Origin: a virus
Lineage: Duplodnaviria > Heunggongvirae > Uroviricota > Caudoviricetes
Strand: one strand, 5' to 3'
Virus record (IMG/VR): IMGVR_UViG_2541047813_000005
Location: 1 to 40,559 of that record
Length of the DNA: 40,559 bases
Part shown: positions 1 through 39,114 of the stretch, piece after piece
Position numbering within the stretch: position 1 is the stretch's first letter
Layout of the letters: each line of letters begins with the position of its first letter
Program-made: the position numbers and the translations under genes
Notes under the pieces: generated by a model
What the model saw: only the letters and a program-made list of their open reading frames with translations
Databases searched by the model: none
What the model was told of the DNA's origin: nothing

Positions 1-223
1 TCAGCTATCAATGAGAAAATAAAATATAAATAAATCAATGCATTGAAACAAACCACTTAGCAGATACCACGAAAAATACCATGTCTCAATAATAGAGCTG
101 TCTACAGGCTGTTCAGACGAACAATATGGCCGCTCTACTCCTAATAGAGTCCTTAGCTCGGTCACATCACTAATTTCAACATAGATGTGAACAAAATGAG
201 GCATCAACGCACCTATTCAGTTA

Positions 224-1738
224 GTGTATTTGATATCGTATGTGGCAACAAAAAATGGAGTTACAATCTTGAAAGTAAGCGAGTTATCTAGCCAAATTGG
301 CCGACTTTACGGCTTAAACAACATCAACATAATTATGGGCCGAAACGGTGCGGGAAAAAGTCGTTTCCTTCGTGATATCGAACAAACAATCAGCCAGAAC
401 AAGCAGCAATTTTATGTCCGGTATGTAAGTCCAGAGCGAGCAGGATCGTTCAAGCGTGATGGCACCGTCCTCACAAATATGAGCGACAACCCCGAATGGC
501 TGAGGCACACTCGGGCAGTTAATCAGGCAAGCAACTTCAAAGCTGCATCGGCTATGCTATTTCGCGAGGCCGAGACGCTTTACTTACGTCGACTTGCCAA
601 TACTCCGGAAATTCGAACTGATCTAACGCGAAACTTTCAGACAGACCGATTAAGTAAAATTAATCAGCTTCTCACTAACATTTCGCTCGAGATGGGTAAT
701 GTCGATTATGAGTTTCGATCACTTGTAGATGGTCAGATTATTGATCCGGCCCAAATCAGTAGCGGTGAATCGGAAGCGGTTGCATTAGCCGCGGAAATCA
801 TCTATTTCTTCGACACAATAGATCCGGAGAAATTCAACGTACTCCTCCTCGATGAGCCTGATGTACATCTGCACCCCGACCTCCAAGCTAGACTGGGCAA
901 GCTGATAATCAGTATGCTCGACGAATTTAGAACACACGCGAACAGTATTGCCATATGCTTATCCACCCATAGTTCCCCGCTCGTCTGTTCTCTTGCCGCC
1001 TCCCCATATGTATCAATCGGCACGAAGAGCTTTGCAGTGAATGAAATCTCATTGATACCGGCCAGCGATGAACTTCGAAAGATTGCACCATTCTTCGGGC
1101 ACCCCCTATCGCTTTCTCTTAGCGAAGACGCTGCATTAATTTTGGAAGGAGAGGACGACGAACGAGTCTGGCAACAAGCGGCCAGAACATCACAGGGTCG
1201 AATAAAAATCTTTCCCGTACTAGCAGGTAGCGTAGATCAACAGAGTCAACTTGAGGATTTTTGCGTAGACCTCCTTAGTACACTCTATGACAATCCAATC
1301 GCCTTTTCCCTTCGTGATGGCGATGGTGTAATCAACGAGTCGCTTGAACATCGCCTACCTCTTAAACGCTATCGCTTACGATGCTACGCTATCGAAAATG
1401 TTCTTTTGACTGATTCATGCCTTGCAGTAATGAATGTTACATGGGTGGAATTTGTAGACGCAGCCAAAAAATGGGTTGAGGATAATCAAACACACTCCGA
1501 CATAGCGTTGATTGCAAAACTAATGGAATCGAACGACCGATTGCGTCACAAGAAGATCAAGAAAATCCGCCAACTCGTCTGTGCTATTGTTGAGTGTAAA
1601 AAACCTTGGGAGGTAGTAGTTGGACAAGCAATCGGGGCATTGACCAGAGAAGACCTTGAAAACTCGAATATGTTGATCGATTTTCTTGGAGGAGAGATGG
1701 TCAGCGACGTCATCTTCAGGGACGCAATAAACCCATGA
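224..1738 (+). CDS. ABC-type ATPase fused to Toprim/OLD-like nuclease domain (candidate anti-phage defence protein)
   Basis: 504-aa ORF; Walker A 'GRNGAGKS', Walker B/D-loop 'LLLDEPDVHLHP', H-loop-like 'STHSSP'; C-terminal acidic motifs 'ILEGEDDE' and 'LRDGDG' resembling the Toprim Glu and DxD; likely true start TTG at 269 (GGAG 8 nt upstream). Confidence 0.65.
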   Translation: MYLISYVATKNGVTILKVSELSSQIGRLYGLNNINIIMGRNGAGKSRFLRDIEQTISQNKQQFYVRYVSPERAGSFKRDGTVLTNMSDNPEWLRHTRAVNQASNFKAASAMLFREAETLYLRRLANTPEIRTDLTRNFQTDRLSKINQLLTNISLEMGNVDYEFRSLVDGQIIDPAQISSGESEAVALAAEIIYFFDTIDPEKFNVLLLDEPDVHLHPDLQARLGKLIISMLDEFRTHANSIAICLSTHSSPLVCSLAASPYVSIGTKSFAVNEISLIPASDELRKIAPFFGHPLSLSLSEDAALILEGEDDERVWQQAARTSQGRIKIFPVLAGSVDQQSQLEDFCVDLLSTLYDNPIAFSLRDGDGVINESLEHRLPLKRYRLRCYAIENVLLTDSCLAVMNVTWVEFVDAAKKWVEDNQTHSDIALIAKLMESNDRLRHKKIKKIRQLVCAIVECKKPWEVVVGQAIGALTREDLENSNMLIDFLGGEMVSDVIFRDAINP

Positions 1739-1753
1739 GAATGACCTGATACT

Positions 1754-2149
1754 ATGACCACGATTGATCCGCCCTCATGGTATCAGTATTTATTTTATAA
1801 CCCGCCTCTCAATACACCAAGAGATTGCGGTAAAGTGGAGCAGCATGATTACCAGCTTTATCTGGCGATAAATGATATTGAGCATACGAAAACGAAAGCA
1901 ATGTCATCTAAGACCAATAGTATCTGCGAGCAGTTCCATAAAACGATACTGAACGAGTTTTATCAGGTGACGTTCCGCAAAAAGTTATATGATGATCTTG
2001 AAGCATTACAATCGGTTCTTGATGAATGGCGGGTTCACTATAATAATGAGCGAACCCATCAGGGAAAAATGTGCAGTGGCCGAACGCCGATGGAAACGTT
2101 ACTTGATGGAAAGCACATCTGGGATGAGAAAAACTTAAGCCAGATGTAA
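1754..2149 (+). pseudogene. IS transposase C-terminal remnant (DDE/rve integrase-core fragment)
   Basis: 131-aa ORF abutting the ATPase stop; C-terminal 'EWRVHYNNERTHQGKMCSGRTPMETL' matches the conserved tail of rve-type transposases; no N-terminal or DD part present. Confidence 0.55.
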
Positions 2150-2242
2150 TCTGACAGATACCTTTATAAATAGCCGGTAATTGTCAGATCAGGTCTGATC
2201 TAATACAACTTAACTGTGTTATGAGCAATACTGAGGATGGAT

Positions 2243-3013
2243 ATGGAACCAGAGAAATTTGCTGAAACTGCAATAGGATTTACCAAAAGCCCTCTTGGTA
2301 TCATTGCACTCTTTATTGTTCTCGTTTATGGATTTGCCTCTTTCGTCGTTGGCTTTGGTAATGGCTTATCAGAGCATATAGCTCCCCTTATTTATTTCAT
2401 GGTTTTCTTTCCTGTCATTGTGTTTCTTGGCTTTCTCTGGCTTGTTGCGAAACATCATAATAAGCTTTACGGGCCGTCAGATTTCAAAGATGAAAATAAT
2501 TTTTTAAGAGCGCAAATAGCTACAGCAGCATCATTGACCGCCGCCACAGCAAAACAGCCTGAAAATAGTGCAGGGGTCACTGAAAGCCAACTGCGAAAAA
2601 TCGTCAACGTTGTATCCAATGCAAAACGGCAGAGTAAGCATGAAAAATGGCGAAATCGTATTTTATGGGTGGATGATCGACCAGAAAATAATGTTTACGA
2701 AAGACAGGCATTTGAGGCACAGGGAATAGAGTTCGCTTTAGCTCTTTCAACTGACGAAGCCTTAGAATTGTTAAAAACAAATAAGTTTGCAGCTATTATT
2801 TCGGATATGGATCGCAAAGAAGGGGCGCAAGAAGGTTATGTCTTACTAGAAAGATTACGCGCAATGGGAGACAAAACTCCTTTTATGATCTATGCGTCCT
2901 CAGATCTACCAGAGCACAAGAGAATGGCGAGAGAAAGAGGTGCAATTGGCTCCACTAATCGAGCAGAAGAACTCTTTCAAATTGTCATGGGTGCGATTAC
3001 CAATGGCTCATAA
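2243..3013 (+). CDS. Membrane protein with two N-terminal TM helices and C-terminal CheY-like receiver (REC)-like domain
   Basis: ORF 2237..3013; ATG at 2243 preceded by GAGGA; hydrophobic segments 'LGIIALFIVLVYGFASFVVGFG' and 'LIYFMVFFPVIVFLGFLWLV'; REC-like pattern 'ILWVDD', 'AAIISDMDR', 'FMIYASSD'; AT-rich codon usage. Confidence 0.55.
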   Translation: MEPEKFAETAIGFTKSPLGIIALFIVLVYGFASFVVGFGNGLSEHIAPLIYFMVFFPVIVFLGFLWLVAKHHNKLYGPSDFKDENNFLRAQIATAASLTAATAKQPENSAGVTESQLRKIVNVVSNAKRQSKHEKWRNRILWVDDRPENNVYERQAFEAQGIEFALALSTDEALELLKTNKFAAIISDMDRKEGAQEGYVLLERLRAMGDKTPFMIYASSDLPEHKRMARERGAIGSTNRAEELFQIVMGAITNGS

Positions 3014-3230
3014 CAAAGCCATTAAATTCGCCCCCTACGGCTACGGTTGCCGGGCGCTCACAACGGCCAGTATCTCATTTGTCGATTTGATCGATCTCAT
3101 TGTAAGCACTTCCGGCTAGACTGTTTTGGAATACCGCCATTTTGTTGGTAATGGCTTTTATCTTTAGGCCATAGCCGATGTTATAGAGTTACGGCCTTAA
3201 AAATAGAAGTCATACACTCAATGAAAAACC

Positions 3231-3263
3231 AATAAAAAATGCCAGTCAGCAAACTGACTGGCA
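3231..3263 (-). terminator. Rho-independent terminator ending the leftward lysis operon
   Basis: Hairpin gccagtcag/ctgactggc (3241..3263) followed on the minus strand by a U-run (plus-strand A-run 3231..3240). Confidence 0.55.
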
Positions 3264-3409
3264 TTAAAGTTAGTTGGAAAGGCTTAATTTACTATTTATA
3301 GCCAGTCCTACTCCCACTCAATTATTTACGACAACCATAACCAATTGAGTGATAACACTTTTCCAAGCCTCAACTTTTCCCGTACCGTTTTATATACCGT
3401 CACCGGAAA

Positions 3410-4831: not shown

Positions 4832-5222
4832 CGTCTTTTCTCCCCGGAATTAACTCGCGTGGATTATCTGAACGGTGATAGAGCCAGATGCCAATTCGAA
4901 CTGCGACGATTGCTGACACGAATGCACCAGCAGAGAAAACAATCCCTTTCTCAAAAGAGTCCTGTGTGATGGTAGGGATCAGGGTGGCTATGCCGATAAG
5001 AATTGATGCTGCTGGTTTGTAAAAGAGAAGACCGCAAAGAAAGCTGAGCATCGACAGGAGCACCCGGCGGCGGATTGGATATTCTACAGCAGAGGTAACA
5101 AAAATTACTGCACCAGCCAAAGAACCCAACGCCACTTCTGGAGGTACTCCAGCTATTACTGCCGCAAGAGAACTCATACTAAGCCACTGATTTAAAGACT
5201 CACTAGTTAGTTGAACTGACAT
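4818..5222 (-). CDS. Putative holin / lysis-cassette membrane protein
   Basis: 134 aa, multiple predicted TM segments, first gene of the lysis cassette, overlaps next gene by 14 nt. Confidence 0.45.
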   Translation of the reverse strand: MSVQLTSESLNQWLSMSSLAAVIAGVPPEVALGSLAGAVIFVTSAVEYPIRRRVLLSMLSFLCGLLFYKPAASILIGIATLIPTITQDSFEKGIVFSAGAFVSAIVAVRIGIWLYHRSDNPRELIPGRKDDGNA

Positions 5223-5378
5223 AAAGACCGCCGATTACTGTGTATAATCCACCCCATTGGTTATTGGGTTTATAATACACATAAACCATATATGAATTAA
5301 ATTTTATGAGTCCACCTATCTCTAAATTACCCGTGAGGTGATATTGTTTCGTATCGCTATTTCCTACAGTATGGATAT

Positions 5379-5740: not shown

Positions 5741-8078
5741 TGTAGTAGGCCACCCAGTTACCTGACTCATTAAATCTGTAAGCACAATTCAAACGAATCG
5801 GACCGATATTATTGAATGTGCTGAGCATTGTCCCACCAATACCATTTTTAACCAAAACTGTTGGGTTAGCAGATGATGACCCGGCTATCTTTATGTAAAC
5901 AATATCACCAACTACGGCAGACACTTTATCCAGCTCAATTGAATAGGTGAAGGCACCTGTACCAGCACTCATGATGATGTAGTACCTGGAGGGGTCAAGC
6001 CTTGGTTCTATTGTTAAAGTCCCAGCTGCTGCCACAGTGTGGTCGAGAAAGGTTCTCACCTGGAGGCTTGTATTTTGTGGAAACCTCGCCCTTGCCCTGT
6101 TGAAAGCGGGATCCATCACTGCGTAAAGTGGGCGAACGTTGTTTCTGTAGGATCTAACCAGAACATCACTACCGTGGAAGTCGTTGCTTTGTGATCCAGA
6201 AAGTGAGTGAACTGCCTCGACCTGGTTAATTGTCCCCTCTCCGACATAGCAGTCAGGGCTATTAACCACAAAATCGACGAACCTGATGTTTTGCGCAAAG
6301 TATGAGTTCAGGCGGAATGTGCTGTTTGTCGAGTTAACTACTGACTGAGCATTTGTGATTGAGTTGCCGACGATTGCGTGAATAGAGTTGATAGTCACTT
6401 CCTGGCAGTCAACCAGAAGCACCGCATCGTAAACAAGGTCAGTGGCAAATCCATCACTTTTATAGACTTCAATGTTTCCGATTTGCAGGGATGGCCTGTT
6501 TCTGGCTCGTACTCCGTTTTGCTTAACGTTGACGTGTACGTTATCGATAAATCCACCTGGCTCGCTGGCTGGGTTGGTTAGGTCGATTCCAACAAATGCC
6601 CCAAGCCCTTCGCTGTCCTTGACAACAAACCCTTCAACGCCGTCACTCAGTTCGACAAACTTCCACCAGTTGTTTGTGTTGAATCTGATGTCTACACCTA
6701 CGTTACCTCGAACGGACTTCATCTTAACGGCCACGCACTGGAATTGCGTACCTTCAACCTGCTGCACGTTATAGCTGCCGTATCCAGTGACATGCACTGA
6801 GCCGCTAAAAGCGTCGCCAATCAGCATGCCATTTACCCACGAATACTGTAGCACCGTCAGGTCATCACGCCCCTGTTGAGGACCGAAATGCGCTCCTAAT
6901 TTGAACTTCGCCCGGTGCGCAGTGAACATTTCCTCCCTGAGTGGAGTAAGAATACCGTACCGACCATTTCCGTTTTCCAGGCGAATCATGAATTTTCCGA
7001 TGTCGGCTTCTCCCTGGGAATAACTGGACTCCGGGTAGCTAACGGCCAGACCTACGGTCGATGCTGAGTCAGCATCCTTCACGCATAACTGGGTTTCTGT
7101 CCCAGCCGTATAAATTTTCACGCCATAGGGAACGGTTACGCACGCCGTCAGTGCGGAATCCCCTGTATGGTAGTTATCCATATCCAGAGAAACACCATTT
7201 GTAGGGCTCACCAGATATTTTCCTGCTGGCCAATAGAGTACCTTAGCTCCGCAATTGGACCAGCGGTTTAGGGCAAGAGTGTCATCTGCAATACCATCTC
7301 CCTTTGCTCCGAAGTGGTAAGGGGTAAGAAGATAGGTGTTGTGCTGATGTTGAGTAATAGTTACAGAATTAGCATAAGGTTGTTTAACTGCAACTAAAGC
7401 ATCCCCCTTTCCATCGGAAGAACTTGCTAACTGAATAAGCACATCAGATGCTGAACCAGATGGAGGAATAACAACAATCGCATTACCATCATTATCAAAT
7501 GCTGGCATCATATTCCGCCGAACTGCTGCTGGAGGTAACTGATTTATTGGCTCAGGAACTCGGAGAGTTCGGCTAAGGTTAGAGAATACAATGGTATCTA
7601 CATAGTTTTTTGTAGCTGCATCCTGAGGGTCGCGTGGGTCTTTCAGATTACGAATATAGTTATTAAGTGCGTCATACCAATTCGCTATACTGGATGGCTT
7701 ACACAACGCCAGCCGGAACCAGCTTCGAACCTGCTGAATCAGCATCGTTAGCTTATCAAAAGCATCCTCATGCACTTCTGCAAAGAACTTACCCTGATTA
7801 CGCAAATCAGTTTCCTGCGTAACCGGGAGGTCTCGTGATATAGAAATCTGATAACCGTTAGCCAACGCCTTCGACAGAATTACATTACCGCCGTTGTACC
7901 CTCCCGCACCAGTTACTGTGTAATCAGTATCAAGAGCCAGCACAGCAATATTTTCATCAAGGTCAACCACCTGAACAACCAGGTCTGATTTTTTGAAAAT
8001 ACGGAAGGTATACGGAAATGATGTCGTAACGCCGTTACCTGTGTATTCGTTGTGGTCAACTTCGGTTGAGACCGTCAT
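5709..8078 (-). CDS. Tailspike / tail fibre protein (receptor-binding)
   Basis: 789 aa; N-terminus 'MTVSTEVDHNEYTGNGVTTSFPYTFRIF' resembles the conserved particle-binding domain of podovirus tailspikes; Gly/Asn/Val-rich body consistent with beta-helix. Confidence 0.75.
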   Translation of the reverse strand: MTVSTEVDHNEYTGNGVTTSFPYTFRIFKKSDLVVQVVDLDENIAVLALDTDYTVTGAGGYNGGNVILSKALANGYQISISRDLPVTQETDLRNQGKFFAEVHEDAFDKLTMLIQQVRSWFRLALCKPSSIANWYDALNNYIRNLKDPRDPQDAATKNYVDTIVFSNLSRTLRVPEPINQLPPAAVRRNMMPAFDNDGNAIVVIPPSGSASDVLIQLASSSDGKGDALVAVKQPYANSVTITQHQHNTYLLTPYHFGAKGDGIADDTLALNRWSNCGAKVLYWPAGKYLVSPTNGVSLDMDNYHTGDSALTACVTVPYGVKIYTAGTETQLCVKDADSASTVGLAVSYPESSYSQGEADIGKFMIRLENGNGRYGILTPLREEMFTAHRAKFKLGAHFGPQQGRDDLTVLQYSWVNGMLIGDAFSGSVHVTGYGSYNVQQVEGTQFQCVAVKMKSVRGNVGVDIRFNTNNWWKFVELSDGVEGFVVKDSEGLGAFVGIDLTNPASEPGGFIDNVHVNVKQNGVRARNRPSLQIGNIEVYKSDGFATDLVYDAVLLVDCQEVTINSIHAIVGNSITNAQSVVNSTNSTFRLNSYFAQNIRFVDFVVNSPDCYVGEGTINQVEAVHSLSGSQSNDFHGSDVLVRSYRNNVRPLYAVMDPAFNRARARFPQNTSLQVRTFLDHTVAAAGTLTIEPRLDPSRYYIIMSAGTGAFTYSIELDKVSAVVGDIVYIKIAGSSSANPTVLVKNGIGGTMLSTFNNIGPIRLNCAYRFNESGNWVAYYITQSVETTYG

Positions 8079-8182
8079 GTTAAATCTCCAGATAGTCGCA
8101 GCACCCGTTGCGCCGCATATCTGGTTATTCTATTACCTGAAAAACCAGATATGGATAGCAAGACTGCAAATACGAATAGATA

Positions 8183-8197
8183 TTACCTTTCGGGTAA
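8183..8197. promoter_or_regulatory. Palindromic operator-like site ATTACC-TTTCG-GGTAAT
   Basis: Perfect TTACC-N5-GGTAA dyad in the intergenic region between the tailspike start and the small plus-strand ORF. Confidence 0.45.
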
Positions 8198-8272
8198 TTT
8201 GCAAAACGTGCTGGATAGCCAATAAATTATTTGGTACTGTTTATTAATACAGTTATTACATGGAGAGATAAG

Positions 8273-8530
8273 ATGCAGCGGTATCACTATCCACTGGAAG
8301 AAGGATTTACCGAAAGGATTCACACGCCGGGAGGCGTCAGGTCACTGGTGGAGGGATCGCACTTGATGAAATTACTCCGGGATCTCGATAAGGATGGATT
8401 TAATGTCGATGGCCCACTTGCCGAACTGACTGCACTGATTAACTACGTCACCAGCTCACAGATGTCTATGCAGGATCTGCAAACACATCTCGACTATTGT
8501 GCCGAACAACTACGAAAACAAACCACATAA
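8273..8530 (+). CDS. Hypothetical small protein (85 aa), opposite strand to late genes
   Basis: ORF 8231..8530; ATG 8273 with GGAG 7 nt upstream; operator-like site upstream; no recognisable motif. Confidence 0.4.
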   Translation: MQRYHYPLEEGFTERIHTPGGVRSLVEGSHLMKLLRDLDKDGFNVDGPLAELTALINYVTSSQMSMQDLQTHLDYCAEQLRKQTT

Positions 8531-8552
8531 AGAAAAGGCCGCGAAAGCGGCC
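8528..8552 (-). terminator. Hairpin terminator after small membrane-protein gene
   Basis: ggccgcgaaagcggcc hairpin (8537..8552) followed on the minus strand by UUUUCU. Confidence 0.5.
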
Positions 8553-8561
8553 TGTGACATG

Positions 8562-8858
8562 TCACGTCCCTTTTCTGAATGATAGCCATTCGAAAAATGA
8601 TGACATTCCACCGCAGACAATAGCAAAGATGATCCCACCAAAGAAGAGAAGGCCAGCCTGCCACCACTCCCACCGCCATACATCCACAGCGCCAACCATA
8701 CCAACAATCGCTCCAACAAATGGAATATAGCTCACGATGAAAGCAATGGGGGCTGCAATTATCCAGTGCAATCCCCACCATGATTCAAGCCCAGCCATAA
8801 TTGCTGCCAACTGAAAAAGACCAACGACGATATAAACAATGAATCCTATAGCTTGCAT
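8562..8858 (-). CDS. Small integral membrane protein (hypothetical)
   Basis: 98 aa, almost entirely hydrophobic with Trp-rich segments; stop codon embedded in GTGACATGTCAC palindrome. Confidence 0.5.
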   Translation of the reverse strand: MQAIGFIVYIVVGLFQLAAIMAGLESWWGLHWIIAAPIAFIVSYIPFVGAIVGMVGAVDVWRWEWWQAGLLFFGGIIFAIVCGGMSSFFEWLSFRKGT

Positions 8859-9053
8859 GTAGTCACCTATTTACCCAGTAAAAATCAGAGGCCTCCCCTC
8901 AATAAGGCTTGCAACAAGAACTATTCCCTGCACAACAAAGATGAACCAGCAAATAGCTTGAGTCTGAGGGTTAAGAAAATATTTGTAGCGGTCAATAAAC
9001 AACAATCCACCAGAAATTATCACACTCAAAATAATTAAAAACACAACACTTCC

Positions 9054-25765: not shown

Positions 25766-26584
25766 ATGAAAAACTTCAAGGTAATTAGCATGTTTGAATC
25801 GTTTAAAGAGCTGTTTTTATCTACTGCCAATACTGCCGTGAATCGAGCCAAAAACCCTGTGCTTGGTGCTTTTGTTATGTCCTGGTGCGCCTTCAACTGG
25901 AAATCAATTCTTTATCTATTTTTTAGCAAATCAAACATAATAGATAAAATTTCATATATCTCAGATAACAGCACATGGAAAACTGTTATGTTTTATCCAT
26001 GCTTATCTGTAATTGCTATCTGCTGCCTATTACCATGGGTAAACAATATCATTAACGTATGGCAAGCAAAGCCTCTTGATAATAATGACTCAATCGAAAA
26101 TCACCTGAAGGCAAGAAAAATCCAGCGTGAAACCAGACTGCAGAGGTTATTGGCTAAAAAAGATGTTACATACGACAAAGTTAAGACTGGCGCGGAAAAA
26201 GACATCCAAGAGATGAAAGAAGAGATTATTCGATCAAAGAATAGTATGGGGGAATTGACTGCCGAGTTGAAAGCTAAAGATGACGAATTGAGATCCGCCA
26301 GTGCTCAGTTAGCAGCTCTAAATCATTCATTAAAAGAGATATCGGAAACTCTGGGAAGAATGAATGAGGCATATAAGACCCTCCAAAATGATTTCGACGA
26401 ATACAAACTCAAATACCCTGAAAAATCTCAAATAAAAAGCCTTGCACTTGGCAACGGCCAAACAATTAGCAACTTTTTGGAGCAACACAACTTATCCGGA
26501 TTAAAATCTGGTAAGCCAAACGTTTTTAATAACTTTGGTGTTCTATCTGGATTATCAGGTTTCGATGATAAAAATAAAGACTAA
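25766..26584 (+). CDS. Cargo (moron) protein: N-terminal hydrophobic/membrane region plus long coiled coil; function unknown, candidate exclusion/abortive-infection factor
   Basis: ORF 25694..26584, probable start ATG 25766; AT-rich codon usage unlike flanking late genes; opposite strand; stop overlaps terL stop convergently. Confidence 0.5.
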   Translation: MKNFKVISMFESFKELFLSTANTAVNRAKNPVLGAFVMSWCAFNWKSILYLFFSKSNIIDKISYISDNSTWKTVMFYPCLSVIAICCLLPWVNNIINVWQAKPLDNNDSIENHLKARKIQRETRLQRLLAKKDVTYDKVKTGAEKDIQEMKEEIIRSKNSMGELTAELKAKDDELRSASAQLAALNHSLKEISETLGRMNEAYKTLQNDFDEYKLKYPEKSQIKSLALGNGQTISNFLEQHNLSGLKSGKPNVFNNFGVLSGLSGFDDKNKD

Positions 26585-28056: not shown

Positions 28057-28649
28057 TGATTACCATCCTGACGTTCTTTGAGTCGCTTCCTGGCTGCTGC
28101 TATGCGATCAGCAATTGTCACATTCACATTAACATCCAGACGTTCTTTGAACGCGTTGACATCAACATGCTTACCAATCAGTTCGAGGTTCTTCACCTTG
28201 TCAGGCCATTTAATTTTTTTGAGGATTGTCTCTATCGAATCCTCGTTCATGTTCATGATGGTCGATGACAGATCAAAGCCACTAAGCGTAGTGCGCCAGA
28301 TTTTCGGCCACTCGCGGATTGGCTTAAGGCTCCCATCGTCGTTGAGGATGTCGATCACGTCCATCTGGTCGATCTCCACCAGGCGCATGAGAACGTAATC
28401 AGCACTGACGCGCATTCGTTTGTTGCGCTCCTCCATCAACTCGGCAATCCGTTTTTGAATGCGTTCATCGCGCATCATGACACTGGCTTTAACTGCCGCT
28501 GTATTTGGGGAGAATCCTGCGTTAATCGCTGCCTGAGTCTGGTTTTCAGGCGTTTTGATGTATGACTGGCAATAAGCCTCCTGCATTGCTGTTAGTGGCT
28601 TAAATTGCGTTGATTTGCGTTTATAGGTTTTAGGTTCAGCAGGCATCAT
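28053..28649 (-). CDS. Terminase small subunit
   Basis: ORF 28053..28745; likely start at internal Met (28649); 'AINAGFSPNTAAVKASVMMRD' resembles terminase small-subunit DNA-binding region. Confidence 0.65.
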   Translation of the reverse strand: MMPAEPKTYKRKSTQFKPLTAMQEAYCQSYIKTPENQTQAAINAGFSPNTAAVKASVMMRDERIQKRIAELMEERNKRMRVSADYVLMRLVEIDQMDVIDILNDDGSLKPIREWPKIWRTTLSGFDLSSTIMNMNEDSIETILKKIKWPDKVKNLELIGKHVDVNAFKERLDVNVNVTIADRIAAARKRLKERQDGNQ

Positions 28650-28758
28650 AACCACCGTGGTAATAGTTACCGTTGTGGTAATAGTACCATGCAAAATAAA
28701 GCCGCCATAGTTGGCGGCAGTATTCAAAACCATCAAATTCATCATGCATAATCTACTC

Positions 28759-32166: not shown

Positions 32167-32181
32167 TTACCTCTAAGGTAA
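32167..32181. promoter_or_regulatory. Operator-like dyad TTACC-TCTAA-GGTAA abutting start codon of the DUF1064-like gene
   Basis: On the minus strand reads TTACCTTAGAGGTAA-ATC-ATG. Confidence 0.45.
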
Positions 32182-32228
32182 TTAAAAACCACATAAGACA
32201 CGAAATCAATAGAGTTTAGAATATTTTA

Positions 32229-32243
32229 TTACCTGATAGGTAA
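32229..32243. promoter_or_regulatory. Operator-like dyad ATTACC-TGATA-GGTAAT
   Basis: Perfect dyad in the 117-bp gap between the P-like and DUF1064-like genes. Confidence 0.45.
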
Positions 32244-32280
32244 TTGTTGAGACGTAAAAAAATGCGCTATCGCGCTGGTA

Positions 32281-33081
32281 TTACTTGATAAATCCTGCCG
32301 CCTTTCCCCGCTTGTATTCCTCCATCAGCCACTGCGCTGGTGTTATTCCCCCAAGGGTGGCGGCGTTAGGCATGCACCCGAAACTTCGCCCTGGTGGATG
32401 GTAAACGTCTCTCCCTGTGTCCGGAGGTGTACTCATGGGTTCTGGCTTTGCCTGTATGCTGATCACCGGATCGGGTATCTGCTGTCCGGAAGCCACCTTT
32501 TTCGCCCAATCATCGAGCAGCCTGCGCGCGTGTTTCTCAACCTCAATCTCGCTAAGCTGGCGCTGATACATTGCACGGCGGGTATCACATACGACCCAGT
32601 ACATAACCGGATGTCGCCACGGGAATCTTTCGGGACCACCAGGATATAAACTTTTTTCCTTGCTGTACCGGTGAAACTCCGCCATCACATCGTCAATGGT
32701 GACGCCAAGAACCATCTTGCTGTCTTTACACCACTTGATGAATTGCCCTGGCGACGGCCAGAACGGAGATTCACTGGCGCGGGCGTGGCGCATACCAGCA
32801 GAAACCTGTTCACGGGTACGTATTCCCCCTTCGGCAAACGCAGCAATCCACTGCTGTTTTGCAGCAACTTCCTGCTCTGGCGTCTTCAGGTTGGTTACCA
32901 CTGCCGCCGGAAACAGTTGTTTCAGCTGTTTGAAAAGGGCATCAACAAGCCTCTCTGCTGACATGTTCACCACATTGTCATTGTTGACGTACTGATGCTC
33001 ATAACCTGACATGCGAGAAAGGGCTTCTCCGTCACGGTTTTGTATCGCGGTAAAAACGTTGTTCACAAGAAATCCTCCCAC
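32281..33081 (-). CDS. Replication protein P-like (helicase loader)
   Basis: 266 aa; 'GMRHARASESPFWPSPGQFIKWC' closely parallels lambda P 'GMRVARRQNRPFLPSPGQFVAWC' (from memory). Confidence 0.75.
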   Translation of the reverse strand: MGGFLVNNVFTAIQNRDGEALSRMSGYEHQYVNNDNVVNMSAERLVDALFKQLKQLFPAAVVTNLKTPEQEVAAKQQWIAAFAEGGIRTREQVSAGMRHARASESPFWPSPGQFIKWCKDSKMVLGVTIDDVMAEFHRYSKEKSLYPGGPERFPWRHPVMYWVVCDTRRAMYQRQLSEIEVEKHARRLLDDWAKKVASGQQIPDPVISIQAKPEPMSTPPDTGRDVYHPPGRSFGCMPNAATLGGITPAQWLMEEYKRGKAAGFIK

Positions 33082-33860
33082 GCTTCAGGGCTGTTCCAGT
33101 GCGGAACGTTGTTATCAGGTAATGTTGATTGCTTCTGTCTGCTAATCTGCAGCCGCCTTGCCAGCTTCTGCTCCCACTGTGCCTGATGGTATGCCTTACC
33201 CTCAGCCATCCAGTAAATTCTGAACTCTGCAAGTTCCTGTGCCGTTGGCAGACTGTCCAGGTAGATCCCCTGCAATGAGCTTTTCCGAAGAAAGTCATCT
33301 GATGGGTGCCATTGTTCATGCATGACAAATTTGCCTAATTGCCCTGGCCCACCAGGAGGAACAAAGTTATTCATCACGGCGTTGTTTGCGCCGGGGTCAT
33401 GAGGCACAGAATCCCCGGTTTTTGTCCTGCTCTCCCTCTCTTGGTTAAATGACTGGTTATATGACTGGTTCTGGATCCCGTTTTTGGGATCATTCAACAT
33501 CCCGTTTTTGGGATCATTCAACATCCCGTTTTTGGGTATATTCCCGTTTTCGGGTTCATTATCCCCTTCCCGGTTGCCTTTAATGTTCCCGTTTTTGGTT
33601 ATATTAAGAGAGAAAACCCGCACTCTTTTCGTCGCTCCCTTTCTCTCTCCGGTATCTGAAATAAGCCCCATTTTCATGAGCGATATAAGTCCGGCCTGCA
33701 CGGTTTTTTTATTCAGGCAAGTGTCTTTAACGAGGCGTTCTATGCTGGGGTAGCAGAGGTTATATTCATCGGCTCTGTCAGCCATCGAGAGCAGTATGAG
33801 CTTTAATGACGAGCTACCTGGATCTGTCTCCCAGGCCCAATCTGTTGCATGTCTGCTCAT
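33063..33860 (-). CDS. Replication initiator (lambda O-like) with internal origin iterons
   Basis: 265 aa; N-terminal HTH-like region; direct DNA repeats inside the gene encode 'NDPKNGML' repeats; precedes the P-like gene with overlap. Confidence 0.65.
   Translation of the reverse strand: MSRHATDWAWETDPGSSSLKLILLSMADRADEYNLCYPSIERLVKDTCLNKKTVQAGLISLMKMGLISDTGERKGATKRVRVFSLNITKNGNIKGNREGDNEPENGNIPKNGMLNDPKNGMLNDPKNGIQNQSYNQSFNQERESRTKTGDSVPHDPGANNAVMNNFVPPGGPGQLGKFVMHEQWHPSDDFLRKSSLQGIYLDSLPTAQELAEFRIYWMAEGKAYHQAQWEQKLARRLQISRQKQSTLPDNNVPHWNSPEAWEDFL
33449..33607. repeat. Iteron array (putative replication origin)
   Basis: Two perfect 24-bp copies 'atcccgtttttgggatcattcaac' (33475..33498, 33499..33522) plus degenerate copies with core CCCGTTTT(T/C)GG; preceded by 2x 'atgactggtt'. 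Confidence 0.65.
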
Positions 33861-34156: not shown

Positions 34157-34171
34157 TTACCTTTGAGGTAC
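34157..34171. promoter_or_regulatory. Operator-like dyad TTACC-TTTGA-GGTAC
   Basis: Between cro-like gene and replication genes. Confidence 0.4.
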
Positions 34172-34180
34172 GAATAGATA

Positions 34181-34205
34181 TGAAAAGACCGCCGGGTGGC
34201 GGTCT
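34181..34205 (-). terminator. Hairpin after cro-like gene (weak terminator, tR1-like position)
   Basis: agaccgcc-gggt-ggcggtct hairpin followed on minus strand by UUUCA. Confidence 0.35.
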
Positions 34206-34226: not shown

Positions 34227-34457
34227 TCATGAGTAGAAGAAGTATGCCAGTTCTGCTTTTGAGCGCAGCCATTGTCTTGTTTTACAGGCTTTAAAAAGCC
34301 CATTCATCAATACTTTACCTGGCATTTTGCGCTTACCTGTTAAGTGAGTCTGGATATAGTGACTCGTCGTTCCGGCTTCCTGTGCGAAGGCTTCACGCTC
34401 ATCCGGAGTAAGTGCAAGCCAGTGCTTTTTGAAATCGAAATGTCCGTTATCGCTCAT
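34227..34457 (-). CDS. Cro-like HTH regulator
   Basis: 76 aa; HTH-like 'EAFAQEAGTTSHYIQTHLTGKR'; divergent from repressor-like gene across an operator-rich region. Confidence 0.55.
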   Translation of the reverse strand: MSDNGHFDFKKHWLALTPDEREAFAQEAGTTSHYIQTHLTGKRKMPGKVLMNGLFKACKTRQWLRSKAELAYFFYS

Positions 34458-34493
34458 AGCTATTGCCTGATATTTATTTCAGATAATAAATAT

Positions 34494-34556
34494 TCACCCA
34501 TAAGGTAACAAAAATCAAGGATAGTTACCCATGAGGTGCATTTACCTGTTGGGTAA
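34494..34556. promoter_or_regulatory. Immunity-region operator cluster (three TTACC-N5-GGTAA-type dyads) with divergent promoters
   Basis: Sites 34494..34508 (TCACC-cataa-GGTAA), 34525..34539 (TTACC-catga-GGTGC), 34542..34556 (TTACC-tgttg-GGTAA) between the cro-like and repressor-like starts. Confidence 0.5.
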
Positions 34557-34611
34557 TATTGCTTTAAATTGAATCATCTACTGATTCATATATGAGGCGA
34601 TTTTCCAGAAA

Positions 34612-35196
34612 ATGAAAAGTATCCAGGACGTCCGCAGGCAAAATCTCAACGACTTGATCGACCGTGAATTCAATGGTGTTCAGACGCGGATGGCAGAAAA
34701 ACTTGGAACTCAGGCAAATCTGGTAAACCGCTGGGCTCTTGGCAAGAAGGTTATCGGCGACCAGGTTGCACGAAAAATTGAAGCTGCCGCCAATAAACCC
34801 CGTAACTGGCTTGATATCGATCGCTCGCTTTCTCAGGAAGGTTTTCAGCCTGTCGGCCCAAGCGACATTGGTCAGCTGGCGGCTCACAACCTGGAACGCT
34901 GGATGAGCGAAAGCCGCGACCTTTCAACGCAGGGAAAACTTCACCGCGCATCCGGCGTCGCCCAGGTGACAATCAGCCGCCTGTTAAACAATGAGGTCAG
35001 CGTTTCCATTTCCACCCTGGAGAATGTTGCATCCGCATTCGGGCGTCATGGCTATGAATTACTGATTCACCCGCACGACCCTGCGACTATCAACTATGAC
35101 CGCTCGCGCTACGCATTGTTACCCGAAACCGAGAAAGCAAAGATCGAAAGTTACATTGAATTTGTCATCAACCAGAACGAAAAAAACAAACAATAA
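34612..35196 (+). CDS. Repressor-like DNA-binding protein with two HTH-like regions (candidate phage repressor)
   Basis: 194 aa; 'QTRMAEKLGTQANLVNRW' and 'ASGVAQVTISRLLNNE' HTH-like segments; no obvious S24 peptidase motif. Confidence 0.55.
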   Translation: MKSIQDVRRQNLNDLIDREFNGVQTRMAEKLGTQANLVNRWALGKKVIGDQVARKIEAAANKPRNWLDIDRSLSQEGFQPVGPSDIGQLAAHNLERWMSESRDLSTQGKLHRASGVAQVTISRLLNNEVSVSISTLENVASAFGRHGYELLIHPHDPATINYDRSRYALLPETEKAKIESYIEFVINQNEKNKQ

Positions 35197-35216: not shown

Positions 35217-35240
35217 AAGCCGCCTCATGGCGGCTTTTTT
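35217..35240 (+). terminator. Rho-independent terminator after repressor-like gene
   Basis: aagccgcc-tcat-ggcggctt hairpin followed by TTTTTT. Confidence 0.65.
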
Positions 35241-35253
35241 ATTGCCTGTTAGA

Positions 35254-35331
35254 TTACCTTTTGGGTAATTTTTTTTAACTCATATCTATTGACATCAAAC
35301 CAGATACGCATAATTATTACCTCAACGGTAA
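35254..35331 (+). promoter_or_regulatory. Early-left promoter with two flanking operator dyads
   Basis: Dyads at 35254..35268 (ATTACC-ttttg-GGTAAT) and 35317..35331 (TTACC-tcaac-GGTAA); TTGACA 35289..35294, 16-nt spacer, TAATTA 35311..35316. Confidence 0.5.
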
Positions 35332-35805: not shown

Positions 35806-36008
35806 AACCAACACTCATCTCATTGCTGCGAGGTGGAAAACACAGCATCCGAGATATGGCAAAGATTCTTGGTATCTCAAGATCGAAGGTTTCTTGGTTC
35901 ATCGCTGAGCTTGAACGTCGCAAATGGGTAGAGGTAACCAGGAGCGCAATATATTTCCACGATGGAACCCGTTCCAACAAGCAGAACGAATACAAGGTTA
36001 AGTTATGA
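35802..36008 (+). CDS. Small HTH/winged-helix DNA-binding protein
   Basis: 68 aa; 'IRDMAKILGISRSKVSWFIAELE' HTH-like. Confidence 0.5.
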   Translation: MKPTLISLLRGGKHSIRDMAKILGISRSKVSWFIAELERRKWVEVTRSAIYFHDGTRSNKQNEYKVKL

Positions 36009-36826
36009 ATACTGGCATCTATTTCGACATCAGCAATGAGGACTACCACGCCGGTGACGGCGTGAGTAAGTCGCAACTGGACATGGTTGCCAAGAATCCG
36101 GCGCTTCTTAAATGGGTTCAGGCAGCACCAGAAGACGAAGAGAAAAAGTCTGCACTAGATATGGGAACTGCATTGCACTGTCTGCTTCTTGAACCTGGAG
36201 AATTCGACAAACGCTTCATTGTTTCACCAAAGTTCGATCGTCGGACGAAACAAGGTAAAGCTGACGAAGAAGCATTTCTTCGTGATGTAGCGGATATGGG
36301 GATTGCGGTACTTGATGCCGAGCAGTGGCGGAAACTGGAGCTGATGCGTGATAGCGCAATGGCTCACCCGGCGGCACGCTGGATGCTGGAAGCACCTGGT
36401 TACTGCGAAGCATCAATGTACTGGAACGATGAAGAGACTGGTGAGTTGTGCCGCATTCGTCCAGACAAATGGCTGAACGAGCACAACGTGATCGTCGACG
36501 TGAAAAAGGTTGCAGATATGGACCGTTTTGCACGCCACATCGAGGAATTCCGCTACCACGTGCAGGACGCAATGTACCGCGAAGGCGCAATGAGGGTTAC
36601 TGGTCAGCCGCATGGTTTTTTCTTTCTTGCCGTGAGCGAAAGCATTGATTGTGGTCGGTATCCGGTACGCGTGTTCGAGCTGGATGCGCAGGATGTCGAT
36701 GCCGGGCACGCTCTGTTCCGCCGGGATCTGAATACCTATCACGAATGCCGCATCAATGATGAATGGGGCGGTGTGGAAATCATTAAACGCCCTGAGTGGG
36801 CACGCAAACAGGATATGTACATATGA
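36005..36826 (+). CDS. PD-(D/E)XK-type recombination exonuclease (RecE/YqaJ-like)
   Basis: 273 aa; N-terminus 'MNTGIYFDISNEDYHAGDGVSKSQL' recalled as typical of phage PD-(D/E)XK exonucleases; directly upstream of and overlapping the annealase gene. Confidence 0.6.
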   Translation: MNTGIYFDISNEDYHAGDGVSKSQLDMVAKNPALLKWVQAAPEDEEKKSALDMGTALHCLLLEPGEFDKRFIVSPKFDRRTKQGKADEEAFLRDVADMGIAVLDAEQWRKLELMRDSAMAHPAARWMLEAPGYCEASMYWNDEETGELCRIRPDKWLNEHNVIVDVKKVADMDRFARHIEEFRYHVQDAMYREGAMRVTGQPHGFFFLAVSESIDCGRYPVRVFELDAQDVDAGHALFRRDLNTYHECRINDEWGGVEIIKRPEWARKQDMYI

Positions 36827-37764
36827 GCAACGACATCGCAAACATCAACGCACCAGTAGACACAGCAATCGCTGGAACTGCTGCAACTATTTTCAGCCCA
36901 GACGGCTTGAACCAACTGATGAAATTCGCCGAGGTAATGGCGCAAAGCCGCGTAACGGTACCGGCGCACCTCGCCGGGAAACCAGCTGATTGCATGGCCG
37001 TGGCAATGCAGGCTGCGCAGTGGGGAATGAACCCGTTTGCCGTTGCTCAGAAAACCCATGTTGTGAACGGCACGCTAGGTTATGAAGCCCAATTAGTAAA
37101 CGCAGTTATCTCAACGATGTCGCCAACAAAAGATCGCATCAACTACGAGTGGTTCGGGCCGTGGGAACGCGTGATCGGTAAGTTTGTTGAGAAAACATCC
37201 AAAAACGGCAATCCATATATCGCACCAGGCTGGACTCTAAAAGACGAAGAAGGCTGCGGTGTTCGCGTATGGGCAACCATGAAGGGCGAGGATCAACCTC
37301 GAGTGCTTGAGTTAATGCTGTCTCAAGCACAGGTAAGAAACTCCACACTTTGGGCCAGTGATCCGAAACAACAACTCGCATACCTTGCGACAAAACGCTG
37401 GTCTCGCTTGCACTGTCCTGACGTAATCATGGGCGTCTACACACCAGACGAATTACAGGAAACGGCACCGCGCGTTGAGCGAGACATTACTCCGCAAACA
37501 ACTACTGCTGCGGGAATGAACAGTCTGATCAACGCTAAACCAGTGAAAAAGCCTGATGAGCAAACTCGTAAAGCGGATAGCCGTGATCCAGAAGAAATGC
37601 TGATGGCCTTTACCAGCGCAGCGATGAATTACAGCACTGTCTCCGAACTGGATAAGGCTTACAAATACATTGCACAAAAACTTTCAGATGATGACGAACT
37701 GCTGGCAAAAGCCACCGACGTTTACAGCGTTCGTCGGGAAGAATTAAACGAAACATCTATGTAA
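36823..37764 (+). CDS. Single-strand annealing protein, Bet/RecT family
   Basis: ORF 36796..37764; start ATG 36823 (ATGA overlap); 'GMNPFAVAQKTHVV' and 'ERDITPQ' resemble lambda Bet (from memory). Confidence 0.7.
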   Translation: MSNDIANINAPVDTAIAGTAATIFSPDGLNQLMKFAEVMAQSRVTVPAHLAGKPADCMAVAMQAAQWGMNPFAVAQKTHVVNGTLGYEAQLVNAVISTMSPTKDRINYEWFGPWERVIGKFVEKTSKNGNPYIAPGWTLKDEEGCGVRVWATMKGEDQPRVLELMLSQAQVRNSTLWASDPKQQLAYLATKRWSRLHCPDVIMGVYTPDELQETAPRVERDITPQTTTAAGMNSLINAKPVKKPDEQTRKADSRDPEEMLMAFTSAAMNYSTVSELDKAYKYIAQKLSDDDELLAKATDVYSVRREELNETSM

Positions 37765-38471: not shown

Positions 38472-39114
38472 GAAATACACACTAATCTATGCAGATCCAC
38501 CCTGGGTATACCGGGACAAAGCCGCAGATGGTAATCGCGGTGCCGGTTTTAAATATCCGGTTATGAGTGTGCTGGATATCTGCCGCCTTCCTGTGTGGGA
38601 TTTGGCCGATGAAAACTGTCTGTTGGCCATGTGGTGGGTGCCAACACAACCACTCGAAGCACTAAAAGTTGTTGAAGCCTGGGGATTCCGTCTGATGACC
38701 ATGAAGGGATTCACGTGGATAAAATGTGGTAGTCGACAACCAGATAAACTGGTTATGGGTATGGGTCACATGACTCGCGCCAATAGTGAAGATTGCCTGT
38801 TTGCAGTAAAGGGAAAACTACCTCCGCGCATTAATGCAGGGATCGTTCAGTCATTTACCGCACCGCGGCTTGAGCATTCAAGAAAACCAGATGTCGTTCG
38901 TGAAAAACTTGTGCAATTGTTAGGCGATGTTTCTCGCATTGAACTGTTCGCCCGCCAGTCGTCTCATGGCTTCGATGTTTGGGGTAATCAGTGCGAAGAC
39001 CCGGCAGTGCAACTACACCCTGGATACGCGTTGGATATTGCCAGATTAACAAATGCATTCAGCAATGCTCCGCTGTCACCAACAGACAACCAGGGGCGGG
39101 AGCGTGCAGCATGA
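38464..39114 (+). CDS. MT-A70 family DNA N6-adenine methyltransferase
   Basis: ORF 38452..39114; 'LIYADPPW' (DPPW catalytic motif) near N-terminus. Confidence 0.75.
   Translation: MTKKYTLIYADPPWVYRDKAADGNRGAGFKYPVMSVLDICRLPVWDLADENCLLAMWWVPTQPLEALKVVEAWGFRLMTMKGFTWIKCGSRQPDKLVMGMGHMTRANSEDCLFAVKGKLPPRINAGIVQSFTAPRLEHSRKPDVVREKLVQLLGDVSRIELFARQSSHGFDVWGNQCEDPAVQLHPGYALDIARLTNAFSNAPLSPTDNQGRERAA

Follow-up and report, generated by a model that had tools for sequence, protein, structure and literature searches.

How is this prophage kept silent, and what releases it? In the window, by which we mean the whole 40,559-nt stretch of DNA analyzed, divergent genes for a 76-aa cro-like protein and a 194-aa repressor (Rep) are separated by a 155-bp gap (34458-34611) that contains three palindromic dyads, a layout that recalls phage lambda. 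From approximately position 3312 onward the window is a prophage of the phiV10/epsilon15 type (Uetakevirus), and this part is 96-98% identical in nucleotide sequence to phiV10, phiv142-3, PAS61 and the O157 typing phages; the Uetakevirus relatives are epsilon15-like temperate podoviruses. An Rfam scan of the window returned tRNA only, and the published attP core ATTGAGTGGGAATGATT is absent from the window at up to two mismatches. The region is very probably the switch that governs immunity in a temperate podovirus prophage of the phiV10/epsilon15 type, operating by antirepression of the SPC32H Rep-Ant type. By every criterion that can be put to a sequence, the window's system is a member of the SPC32H Rep-Ant family. 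This type of switch is already known: it has been structurally solved in Salmonella phage SPC32H, and its sites are already annotated in epsilon15.

Layout of the immunity region

The following features make up the region from the cro-like gene to the early-left promoter.

34186..34205, minus strand: intrinsic terminator after the cro-like gene (terminator scan; annotated in phiV10)
34227..34457, minus strand: cro-like gene, 76 aa, the first gene of a lytic operon running into the replication genes
34483..34519, minus strand: candidate lytic (PR-like) promoter; TTGTTA-17-TATTAT (34511..34483) in the promoter scan, a weak consensus match
34494-34508: OR dyad nearest the cro-like gene, TCACCcataaGGTAA = TCACCCATAAGGTAA; one mismatch to TTACC-N5-GGTAA; overlaps the candidate lytic promoter; conserved in five phages
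34525-34539: middle OR dyad, TTACCcatgaGGTGC = TTACCCATGAGGTGC; two mismatches; perfect in SPC32H and epsilon15
34542-34556: OR dyad nearest rep, TTACCtgttgGGTAA = TTACCTGTTGGGTAA; perfect
34612..35196, plus strand: rep, 194-aa prophage repressor
35217-35236, plus strand: intrinsic terminator after rep (terminator scan; annotated in phiV10)
35254-35268: OL distal dyad, TTACCTTTTGGGTAA; perfect; half-sites invariant in seven taxa; 21 bp upstream of the -35
35289-35317, plus strand: early-left (PL-like) promoter, TTGACA-17-AATTAT; 10/12 matches
35317-35331: OL proximal dyad, TTACCTCAACGGTAA; perfect; begins at the last -10 base and extends over the start-site region; spaced 63 bp from its distal partner

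The preliminary description had placed three dyads between the 76-aa and 194-aa genes and two more at the early-left promoter, and all five are present. The lambda-like layout that it proposed is borne out as well (divergent repressor and cro-like genes, a tripartite operator, a terminator, and then an early-left promoter with operators), as is its statement that the operator sequence, TTACC-N5-GGTAA, is unlike that of lambda. Its inventory was incomplete, since nine further intergenic dyads occur in the window.

In phiV10, Tyrion, SPC32H and epsilon15 the three OR dyads are likewise set 31 and 17 bp apart, and in an alignment of five phages the OR half-sites are invariant and the spacers and flanks vary. 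We accepted the weakest site, at 34525, because its position and half-sites are conserved in relatives. A further dyad-like sequence at 34333, with two mismatches, was discarded; it lies inside the cro-like gene and has no match at the equivalent place in SPC32H. The candidate lytic promoter has an alternative -35 element, TTGATT (34519..34514), that is invariant in the five phages and accompanied by an invariant block, AAAAATCAA; together with the scan, this block points to a lytic promoter at OR. The rep promoter probably lies in a weak, conserved TTTAAA-type region just downstream of the two rep-proximal dyads. At OL, the PL-like promoter is the strongest sigma-70-like promoter of the region in the promoter scan, and its -35 TTGAC and its ATTAT are invariant in seven taxa. 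The alignment of these taxa shows the same pattern across OL, with half-sites and promoter hexamers invariant and spacers and flanks drifting.

The cro-like protein is 76% identical to SPC32H_042 and matches PHROG_35, 'transcriptional repressor' (E 5.6e-13); Pfam, NCBIfam and PDB sequence searches with it gave no match. An AF2 single-sequence model is a five-helix, HTH-like bundle (pLDDT 81.6), for which the best PDB folds are weak matches (Foldseek E ~1, TM 0.56-0.62) to YdaS, the DNA-binding domain of 434 repressor and C-proteins.

Operator dyads across the window and in related phages

Perfect TTACC-N5-GGTAA dyads number eight in the window, with 0.02 expected, and those with at most one mismatch number 13, with 0.63 expected. 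The expectations derive from 100 dinucleotide-preserving shuffles of the window, none of which (0/100) reaches either count; chance is excluded for the dyads because the observed counts exceed those of every shuffle. The extended consensus is A-TTACC-T-N-T-N-A-GGTAA-T. The nine extra dyads (at 5327, 8183, 25130, 25747, 28649, 28667, 32167, 32229 and 34157) are intergenic without exception (9/9) and precede most of the other transcription units. They are as follows.

34157-34171: dyad after the cro-like gene, TTACCTTTGAGGTAC; one mismatch; between the cro terminator and a 67-aa gene; SPC32H has a weaker equivalent at the same place
32229-32243: nin-like dyad 1; perfect; in the spacer of a minus-strand TCAACA-16-TAAAAT (32250..32223), upstream of a DUF1064 gene
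32167-32181: nin-like dyad 2; perfect; 4 nt before the start of the DUF1064 gene (32163); 62 bp from the 32229 dyad
28649-28681: terS dyads, a pair spaced 18 bp apart (28667 perfect, 28649 with one mismatch); immediately before the ATG (28646) of the terminase small-subunit gene
25747-25761: accessory-gene dyad-like site, TTACCTTAAAGGTAT; overlaps the -10 of ATGACC-17-TATAAT (25736-25764); an accessory gene (25790-26584) follows
25101-25144, plus strand: head/tRNA site, a promoter-like TAGACA-18-AATTAT directly abutted by a perfect dyad at 25130-25144; between the head-gene operon and tRNA-Arg
8183-8197: ant/tail-fibre dyad; perfect; between the antirepressor gene ant and the minus-strand tail-fibre gene, which starts at 8078; abuts a conserved TTGCA(A/T)
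5327-5341: lysis dyad-like site, TTACCCGTGAGGTGA; one mismatch; 105 bp ahead of the minus-strand holin/lysis cassette, which starts at 5222

Many of these sites have counterparts in relatives. Nin-like dyad pairs 62 bp apart are also found in SPC32H, epsilon15 and Tyrion. The terS pair, upstream of which lies a terminator (28718..28701), is matched in epsilon15 (12/30, with the 12-27 site annotated 'repressor') and in Tyrion (67/85); in SPC32H a perfect site at 12 precedes terS, and its sole candidate partner, at 38521 with one mismatch, is at the other end of the linear record. We found no recognizable sigma-70 promoter between the terminator and the terS ATG. Equivalents of the 25130 dyad occur at 3175 in SPC32H, 3969 in Tyrion and 2932 in epsilon15, the last of these annotated 'repressor'; the promoter-like sequence at 25101 points toward tRNA-Arg. 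A 15-mer identical to the 25747 site sits upstream of int in SPC32H (26960). The counterpart of the 8183 dyad in epsilon15, at the same place, is annotated 'protein_bind repressor', and the 5327 site has equivalents at 24782 in SPC32H, 24704 in epsilon15 (perfect) and 26408 in Tyrion.

Genome-wide, TTACC-N5-GGTAA sites number 18 in SPC32H (0.65 expected), 15 in epsilon15 (0.5 expected) and 15 in Tyrion (0.51 expected). Nine kinds of position are common to these three phages: OR, OL, the stretch past the cro terminator, the nin-like pair, the ant/tail-fibre interval, and the regions ahead of terS, the head genes, the lysis genes and int. Six enterobacterial species-representative genomes that encode a full-length Rep homologue (Superficieibacter, Erwinia dacicola, Klebsiella pneumoniae, two Citrobacter and Scandinavium) have the same dyads at OR and OL. 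Further matches of a genome scan with a Rep alignment, from Paraburkholderia, Hydrogenovibrio and Thiomicrospira, were rejected as unrelated HTH proteins; they cover the N-terminal domain only and have no upstream dyads. The RefSeq record of epsilon15 (NC_004775) annotates seven such sites as 'protein_bind, repressor, lysogeny': one each ahead of terS, gp3 and the nin-like region, one at gp19/tail fibre and three at OL. The three OR dyads are present in epsilon15 but carry no annotation in NC_004775.

Motif statistics, conservation, RefSeq annotation and secondary descriptions converge, if indirectly, on the dyads being operators of Rep. A doubtful alternative is that, beyond OR and OL, the dyads do not serve Rep as operators and are instead sites for the cro-like protein only, sites of another regulator, or promoter-associated sequence retained by descent. 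Several of them do occur singly, no obvious promoter accompanies the terS pair for Rep to act on, and the ant site lies approximately 45 bp upstream of the inferred start, a distance equally compatible with activation or repression. However, they share the sequence of the OR and OL dyads and are all intergenic, their positions are conserved across phages of three host genera in which the flanks diverge, epsilon15 carries them as annotated repressor sites, and the pair spacings of 17-18 bp and 62-63 bp recur.

The repressor, the antirepressor gene and its LexA box

Rep matches PDB 5D50_A, 'Repressor', over residues 1-190 (E 4e-42) and 5D4Z_A over residues 89-190 in a PDB sequence search, and is 42% identical to SPC32H Rep (BLASTP, E 2e-53), with 54% identity in the N-terminal domain (NTD) and 38.5% in the C-terminal domain (CTD). 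The preliminary description had seen two HTH-like regions in the protein, and both were recovered: Pfam places HTH_3 at residues 106-147, with a weak HTH (YdaS) signal at 21-61, and residues 1-76 match PHROG repressor families (the protein's PHROG matches are PHROG_8, PHROG 5736 and PHROG 12107) and, weakly, YdaS and HigA HTH models. No NCBIfam family was above threshold for Rep, the cro-like protein or Ant. The N-terminal HTH domain spans approximately residues 1-70 and holds the invariant NLVNRW helix (36-41); the C-terminal HTH_3-like domain with its tail, approximately residues 89-194, is the counterpart of the crystallized Rep(92-198). NLVNRW is invariant in four Reps that are otherwise 43% identical, and the matching stretch of the C-terminal HTH varies among them. 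This invariance fits the operator half-site common to the same four phages, and we regard NLVNRW as a candidate recognition helix. We also considered Rep as a single-chain pseudo-dimer that reads both half-sites; this reading was dropped, the internal duplication of the HTH halves being insignificant (best E 0.15). The NTD of SPC32H Rep is reportedly its DNA-binding domain, and the same Rep is said to remain uncleaved during the SOS response; both points are attributed to Kim and Ryu, in 2013, and to Kim and colleagues, in 2016. The invariance of NLVNRW supports the former.

Rep corresponds to phiV10 p40, whose annotation reads 'putative transcriptional repressor, two helix-turn-helix motifs'. 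A Rep of 100% identical sequence is encoded in at least 80 IMG/VR contigs, among which one has the length of phiV10 (39,104 bp); the IMG/VR scan with Rep as query gave identical copies only and is uninformative on covariation. The repressors of ZX5 and phiV10 are reported to be identical, and overexpression of the repressor in ZX5 abolishes free phage and the transcription of lysis and lytic genes (PMC9782041).

The candidate for releasing Rep lies far from the immunity region, beside the tail-fibre gene.

8235-8254: LexA (SOS) box, TACTGTTTATTAATACAGTT; exact CTGT-N8-ACAG, matching 16/20 positions of the E. coli consensus; 18 nt before the start codon of ant
8273..8530, plus strand: ant, an 85-aa ORF, antirepressor homologue

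At 90% identity to SPC32H Ant, the window's Ant has matches in PDB 5D50_E, 'Anti-repressor protein' (E 1.2e-47), in PHROG_450 and in the C-terminal part of PHROG_1760, 'anti-repressor'. In Pfam, Ant has no family at the curated cut-off; the sole match is DUF724, at 17.6 bits against a 38.4-bit cut-off. The LexA box is kept in six phages, being aligned in phiV10, ZX5, SPC32H and epsilon15 and found in Tyrion. The order of elements is likewise kept: Rep dyad, TTGCA(A/T), an invariant block (GCTGGATAG), LexA box, GGAG and ATG. From dyad to ATG the arrangement is conserved base for base in phiV10, ZX5, SPC32H and epsilon15, and it is present in Tyrion. We predict from this that the window's ant is under LexA control. 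The assignment of the Pant promoter is weak, resting as it does on a weak consensus match. The center of the 8183 dyad is approximately 45 bp upstream of the inferred ant start and approximately 70 bp upstream of the inferred tail-fibre start, the latter being placed by an invariant minus-strand TAGAAT -10 (8132-8127). Two other CTGT-N8-ACAG sequences, at 21117 and 25659, have GC-rich centers and score 9/20 and 12/20; we do not take them to be LexA boxes.

Pairing of Ant with Rep in this phage is inferred from these homologies. Ant is 90% identical between phages whose Rep CTDs are 38.5% identical, a contrast that hints at cross-reactivity. An SPC32N mutant in the LexA box is reportedly constitutively lytic, a phenotype that argues that Rep alone does not keep ant off. 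In Salmonella prophages of this kind, self-cleavage of LexA allows Ant synthesis and the repressor is inactivated, according to a review that cites Kim and Ryu, 2013 (PMC7380047). Prophages of the phiV10 species are induced 21-47-fold by a DNA-damaging microcin (bioRxiv 10.64898/2026.05.26.727859).

An antirepressor other than the 85-aa ORF could be the inducer, either one of the Bro-N type, as in ZX5, or a factor from the host or another prophage. phiV10 (p23) and ZX5 (ORF4) have a Bro-N 'anti-repressor' just downstream of the small ORF, and overexpression of the Bro-N protein lowered lysogeny in ZX5 (PMC9782041); trans-acting antirepressors are known among Salmonella prophages (PMC7380047). 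In the window, however, there is no Bro-N gene at this locus: past ant, at 8531-9053, the only ORFs are two that encode small membrane proteins on the minus strand, and the one scanned against Pfam, the 98-aa ORF at 8562-8858, has no match. The 85-aa ORF, for its part, is nearly identical to the crystallized Ant and retains its LexA box, and we judge the alternative unlikely. The study of ZX5, which is the sole functional work on the phage type found in E. coli, dealt with the neighboring Bro-N protein and not with the small ant (PMC9782041). The small ant is annotated as hypothetical in the phiV10 and ZX5 records, and so is its homologue gp19 in epsilon15.

It is most improbable that the 194-aa repressor is lost by RecA-stimulated self-cleavage in a lambda-type switch, as its OR/OL layout and the SOS inducibility of the prophage family might suggest, given that Rep has no Peptidase_S24 match at E<=0.1 in Pfam, no Ala-Gly or Cys-Gly dipeptide anywhere and no Cys, that its C-terminal half aligns with the solved HTH-like oligomerization domain of SPC32H Rep (5D4Z), and that a LexA-boxed ant homologue is present in the prophage.

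The preliminary description had noted the missing LexA-type autocleavage motif and called for the S24 search, the outcome of which agrees with it. Its proposal that an antirepressor, and not RecA-mediated cleavage, brings about induction is supported, a homologue of a known antirepressor having been found; the LexA box makes induction SOS/RecA-dependent all the same, though indirectly. For the same reason mitomycin C inducibility, which had been suggested as a check, would not separate the models: with a LexA box preceding ant, induction is still SOS-dependent. The antirepressor gene was to be sought elsewhere in the host; instead it is phage-encoded, in the same prophage (8273-8530).

A proposed circuit and its relation to known switches

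In the circuit that we propose, the N-terminal HTH of Rep would bind the 15-17-bp palindromes (A)TTACC-N5-GGTAA(T), as homology and geometry suggest, and its HTH-like CTD would form dimers and tetramers. For binding, oligomeric state and the order of events, the proposal draws on the SPC32H literature and on the geometry of the sites. SPC32H Rep is reported to bind palindromic sites as a tetramer, with the partners of each DNA-binding pair belonging to different dimers, and to be taken apart by tetrameric Ant (PMC9638917, PMC9986798, bioRxiv 2025.11.27.690993). In the lysogen, Rep tetramers would occupy the dyads, those at OR overlapping the cro-operon promoter and adjoining the rep promoter. 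At OL, one dyad lies on the start site of the strong promoter and its partner is 63 bp, or six helical turns, upstream, a geometry that would suit bridging by a tetramer. With further dyads at the replication-distal early genes, terS, head/tRNA, accessory, lysis and tail-fibre/ant positions, nearly all transcription units may be directly silenced.

Rep, having no protease domain, would not cleave itself upon DNA damage; instead RecA would become active, LexA would cleave itself, and the LexA box over the ant promoter would be vacated, so that the 85-aa Ant could be made. Ant would then bind Rep and strip it off the DNA, derepressing all units for lytic transcription, after which the 76-aa cro-like protein probably takes the same operators and shuts off rep.

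We extend this circuit only tentatively to a broader reading, in which Rep would be a genome-wide silencer that occupies 14 or more dyads, spread over nine places close to promoters, with its tetramer bridging pairs 17-18 bp (OR, terS) or 62-63 bp (OL, nin-like) apart. In this reading the conserved dyad beside the ant promoter would place ant under dual control by LexA and Rep, release of Rep by Ant would feed back on Ant synthesis as a commitment latch, and the 90% identity of Ant across Reps that are 42% identical would permit cross-induction between E. coli and Salmonella phages. Parts of the genome-wide silencer reading are already implied by the annotation of epsilon15.

Among known systems, the closest is SPC32H Rep-Ant (PDB 5D4Z, 5D50). 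The two have in common a full-length Rep homologue, a 90%-identical Ant, the gene order (ant and the tail-spike/fibre gene diverge, as do rep and the cro-like gene), a LexA box ahead of ant and TTACC-N5-GGTAA dyads at the same positions. They differ in Rep, at 42% identity (NTD 54%, CTD 38.5%), in the host, here E. coli, and in the number of OL dyads, three in SPC32H and two in the window. The biochemistry of the switch comes from SPC32H, whereas the window's Rep is known here from its sequence. The gp38 repressor system of epsilon15 has an identical dyad sequence, with repressor sites annotated in NC_004775. phiV10 (p40) and vB_EcoP_ZX5 (ORF21) have the same phiV10-type repressor as the window, but they also carry the Bro-N 'anti-repressor' gene that the window lacks.

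Lambda cI and P22 C2 are likewise encoded divergently from a cro gene, with three operators between the two and early-left operators downstream of the repressor gene, and their palindromic sites are read by an HTH. Unlike them, the window's Rep has no S24 autocleavage domain, its operator sequence differs, many operators lie beyond OR and OL, and induction is predicted to proceed by an antirepressor. By our searches, Rep lacks both features that define S24 repressors, the S24 domain and the scissile bond, and the likeness to lambda is one of layout only. Coliphage 186 Tum and the antirepressors of Gifsy and Fels-2 are similar in that a non-cleavable repressor is inactivated by a small LexA-repressed protein (PMC7380047). 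An SPC32H-type Ant differs in disassembling the Rep tetramer and not occluding its DNA-binding surface (PMC9638917, bioRxiv 2025.11.27.690993).

The analysis adds little that is new to the field beyond its value for annotation, which is its main use: the immunity region is present in 540/5426 complete E. coli genomes (~10%), and those annotated records of E. coli phages that we inspected call ant 'hypothetical'. The operator consensus ATTACC-N5-GGTAAT is a ready tool for predicting the regulons of these prophages, and the Rep/Ant/LexA circuit would account for their response to DNA damage without a cleavable repressor.

Left boundary and recombination and replication genes

The left flank of the prophage (1-3322) is not guaA, the reported attB of the related phages ZX5, phiV10 and epsilon15, and encodes:

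224-1738, AAA_15/AbiEii-like ATPase
1754-2149, rve_3 integrase-core fragment
2237-3013, response-regulator-like protein

The published att core was not found in the window at up to 2 mismatches, and its sole match at the prophage boundary is the 11-nt tcccactcaat (3312-3322). This boundary may represent an alternative integration site adjoining a defence or mobile island.

The replication and recombination genes include:

33063-33860, minus strand, DnaT/HTH_36 replication-initiator gene
36005-36826, RecE-like exonuclease
36796-37764, RecT

The initiator gene contains perfect 24-bp iterons (ATCCCGTTTTTGGGATCATTCAAC, 2.6 copies) alongside a 12-bp repeat; the iteron region (33442-33536) is probably the phage origin. 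The exonuclease and RecT are encoded by overlapping but separate ORFs, while the phiV10 record has one 'recET' fusion CDS.

Promoter-like sites outside the immunity region

In the region 25101-25543, a promoter-like TAGACA-18-AATTAT sequence, putatively controlled by a Rep dyad (TTACC-N5-GGTAA type) at 25130, is directed toward a roughly 320-nt untranslated stretch. Nearby features are:

25467-25543, tRNA-Arg(TCT), following the roughly 320-nt untranslated leader
25790 (ATG) to 26584, accessory gene of 264 aa, PHROG_4780 (function unknown), coiled-coil-like

An Rfam search with the leader gave no match, and the leader folds with a z-score of only -1.9; in epsilon15, an RNase III site is annotated in the equivalent region. 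The accessory gene, flanked by those for terminase and portal, is served by a TATAAT promoter of its own, which TTACCTTAAAGGTAT overlaps; promoter and gene together span 25736-26584. The upstream region of int in SPC32H, the Salmonella phage with a solved Rep-Ant system, contains the same 15-mer.

An apparent tail-fibre promoter lies on the minus strand, where TCCATA is found 17 bp upstream of an invariant TAGAAT (8132-8127). Its spacer includes a single TTACC half-site (8133-8137), and in this region (8127-8155) the block ATTCTATTACC is kept in all five aligned phages.

The antirepressor and the divergence of its predicted target

In phiV10 and ZX5, the small ant gene is followed downstream by a Bro-N 'anti-repressor/anti-immunity' gene (records L005, 3269-3964, and L006, 3266-3850), whereas the window has two ORFs there (8531-9053):

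8562-8858, minus strand, small membrane protein
8871-9044, minus strand, small membrane protein

The ZX5 study (PMC9782041) examined the product of the Bro-N gene rather than the SPC32H-type Ant, whose annotation is hypothetical.

Compared with their SPC32H counterparts, Ant (8273-8530) is 90% identical and the cro-like protein 76%, but Rep (34612-35196) is only 42% identical (38.5% in its C-terminal domain). Conservation extends to the operator half-sites. Rep has diverged much faster than all of its predicted interacting elements, which suggests that cross-induction between phage types is possible.
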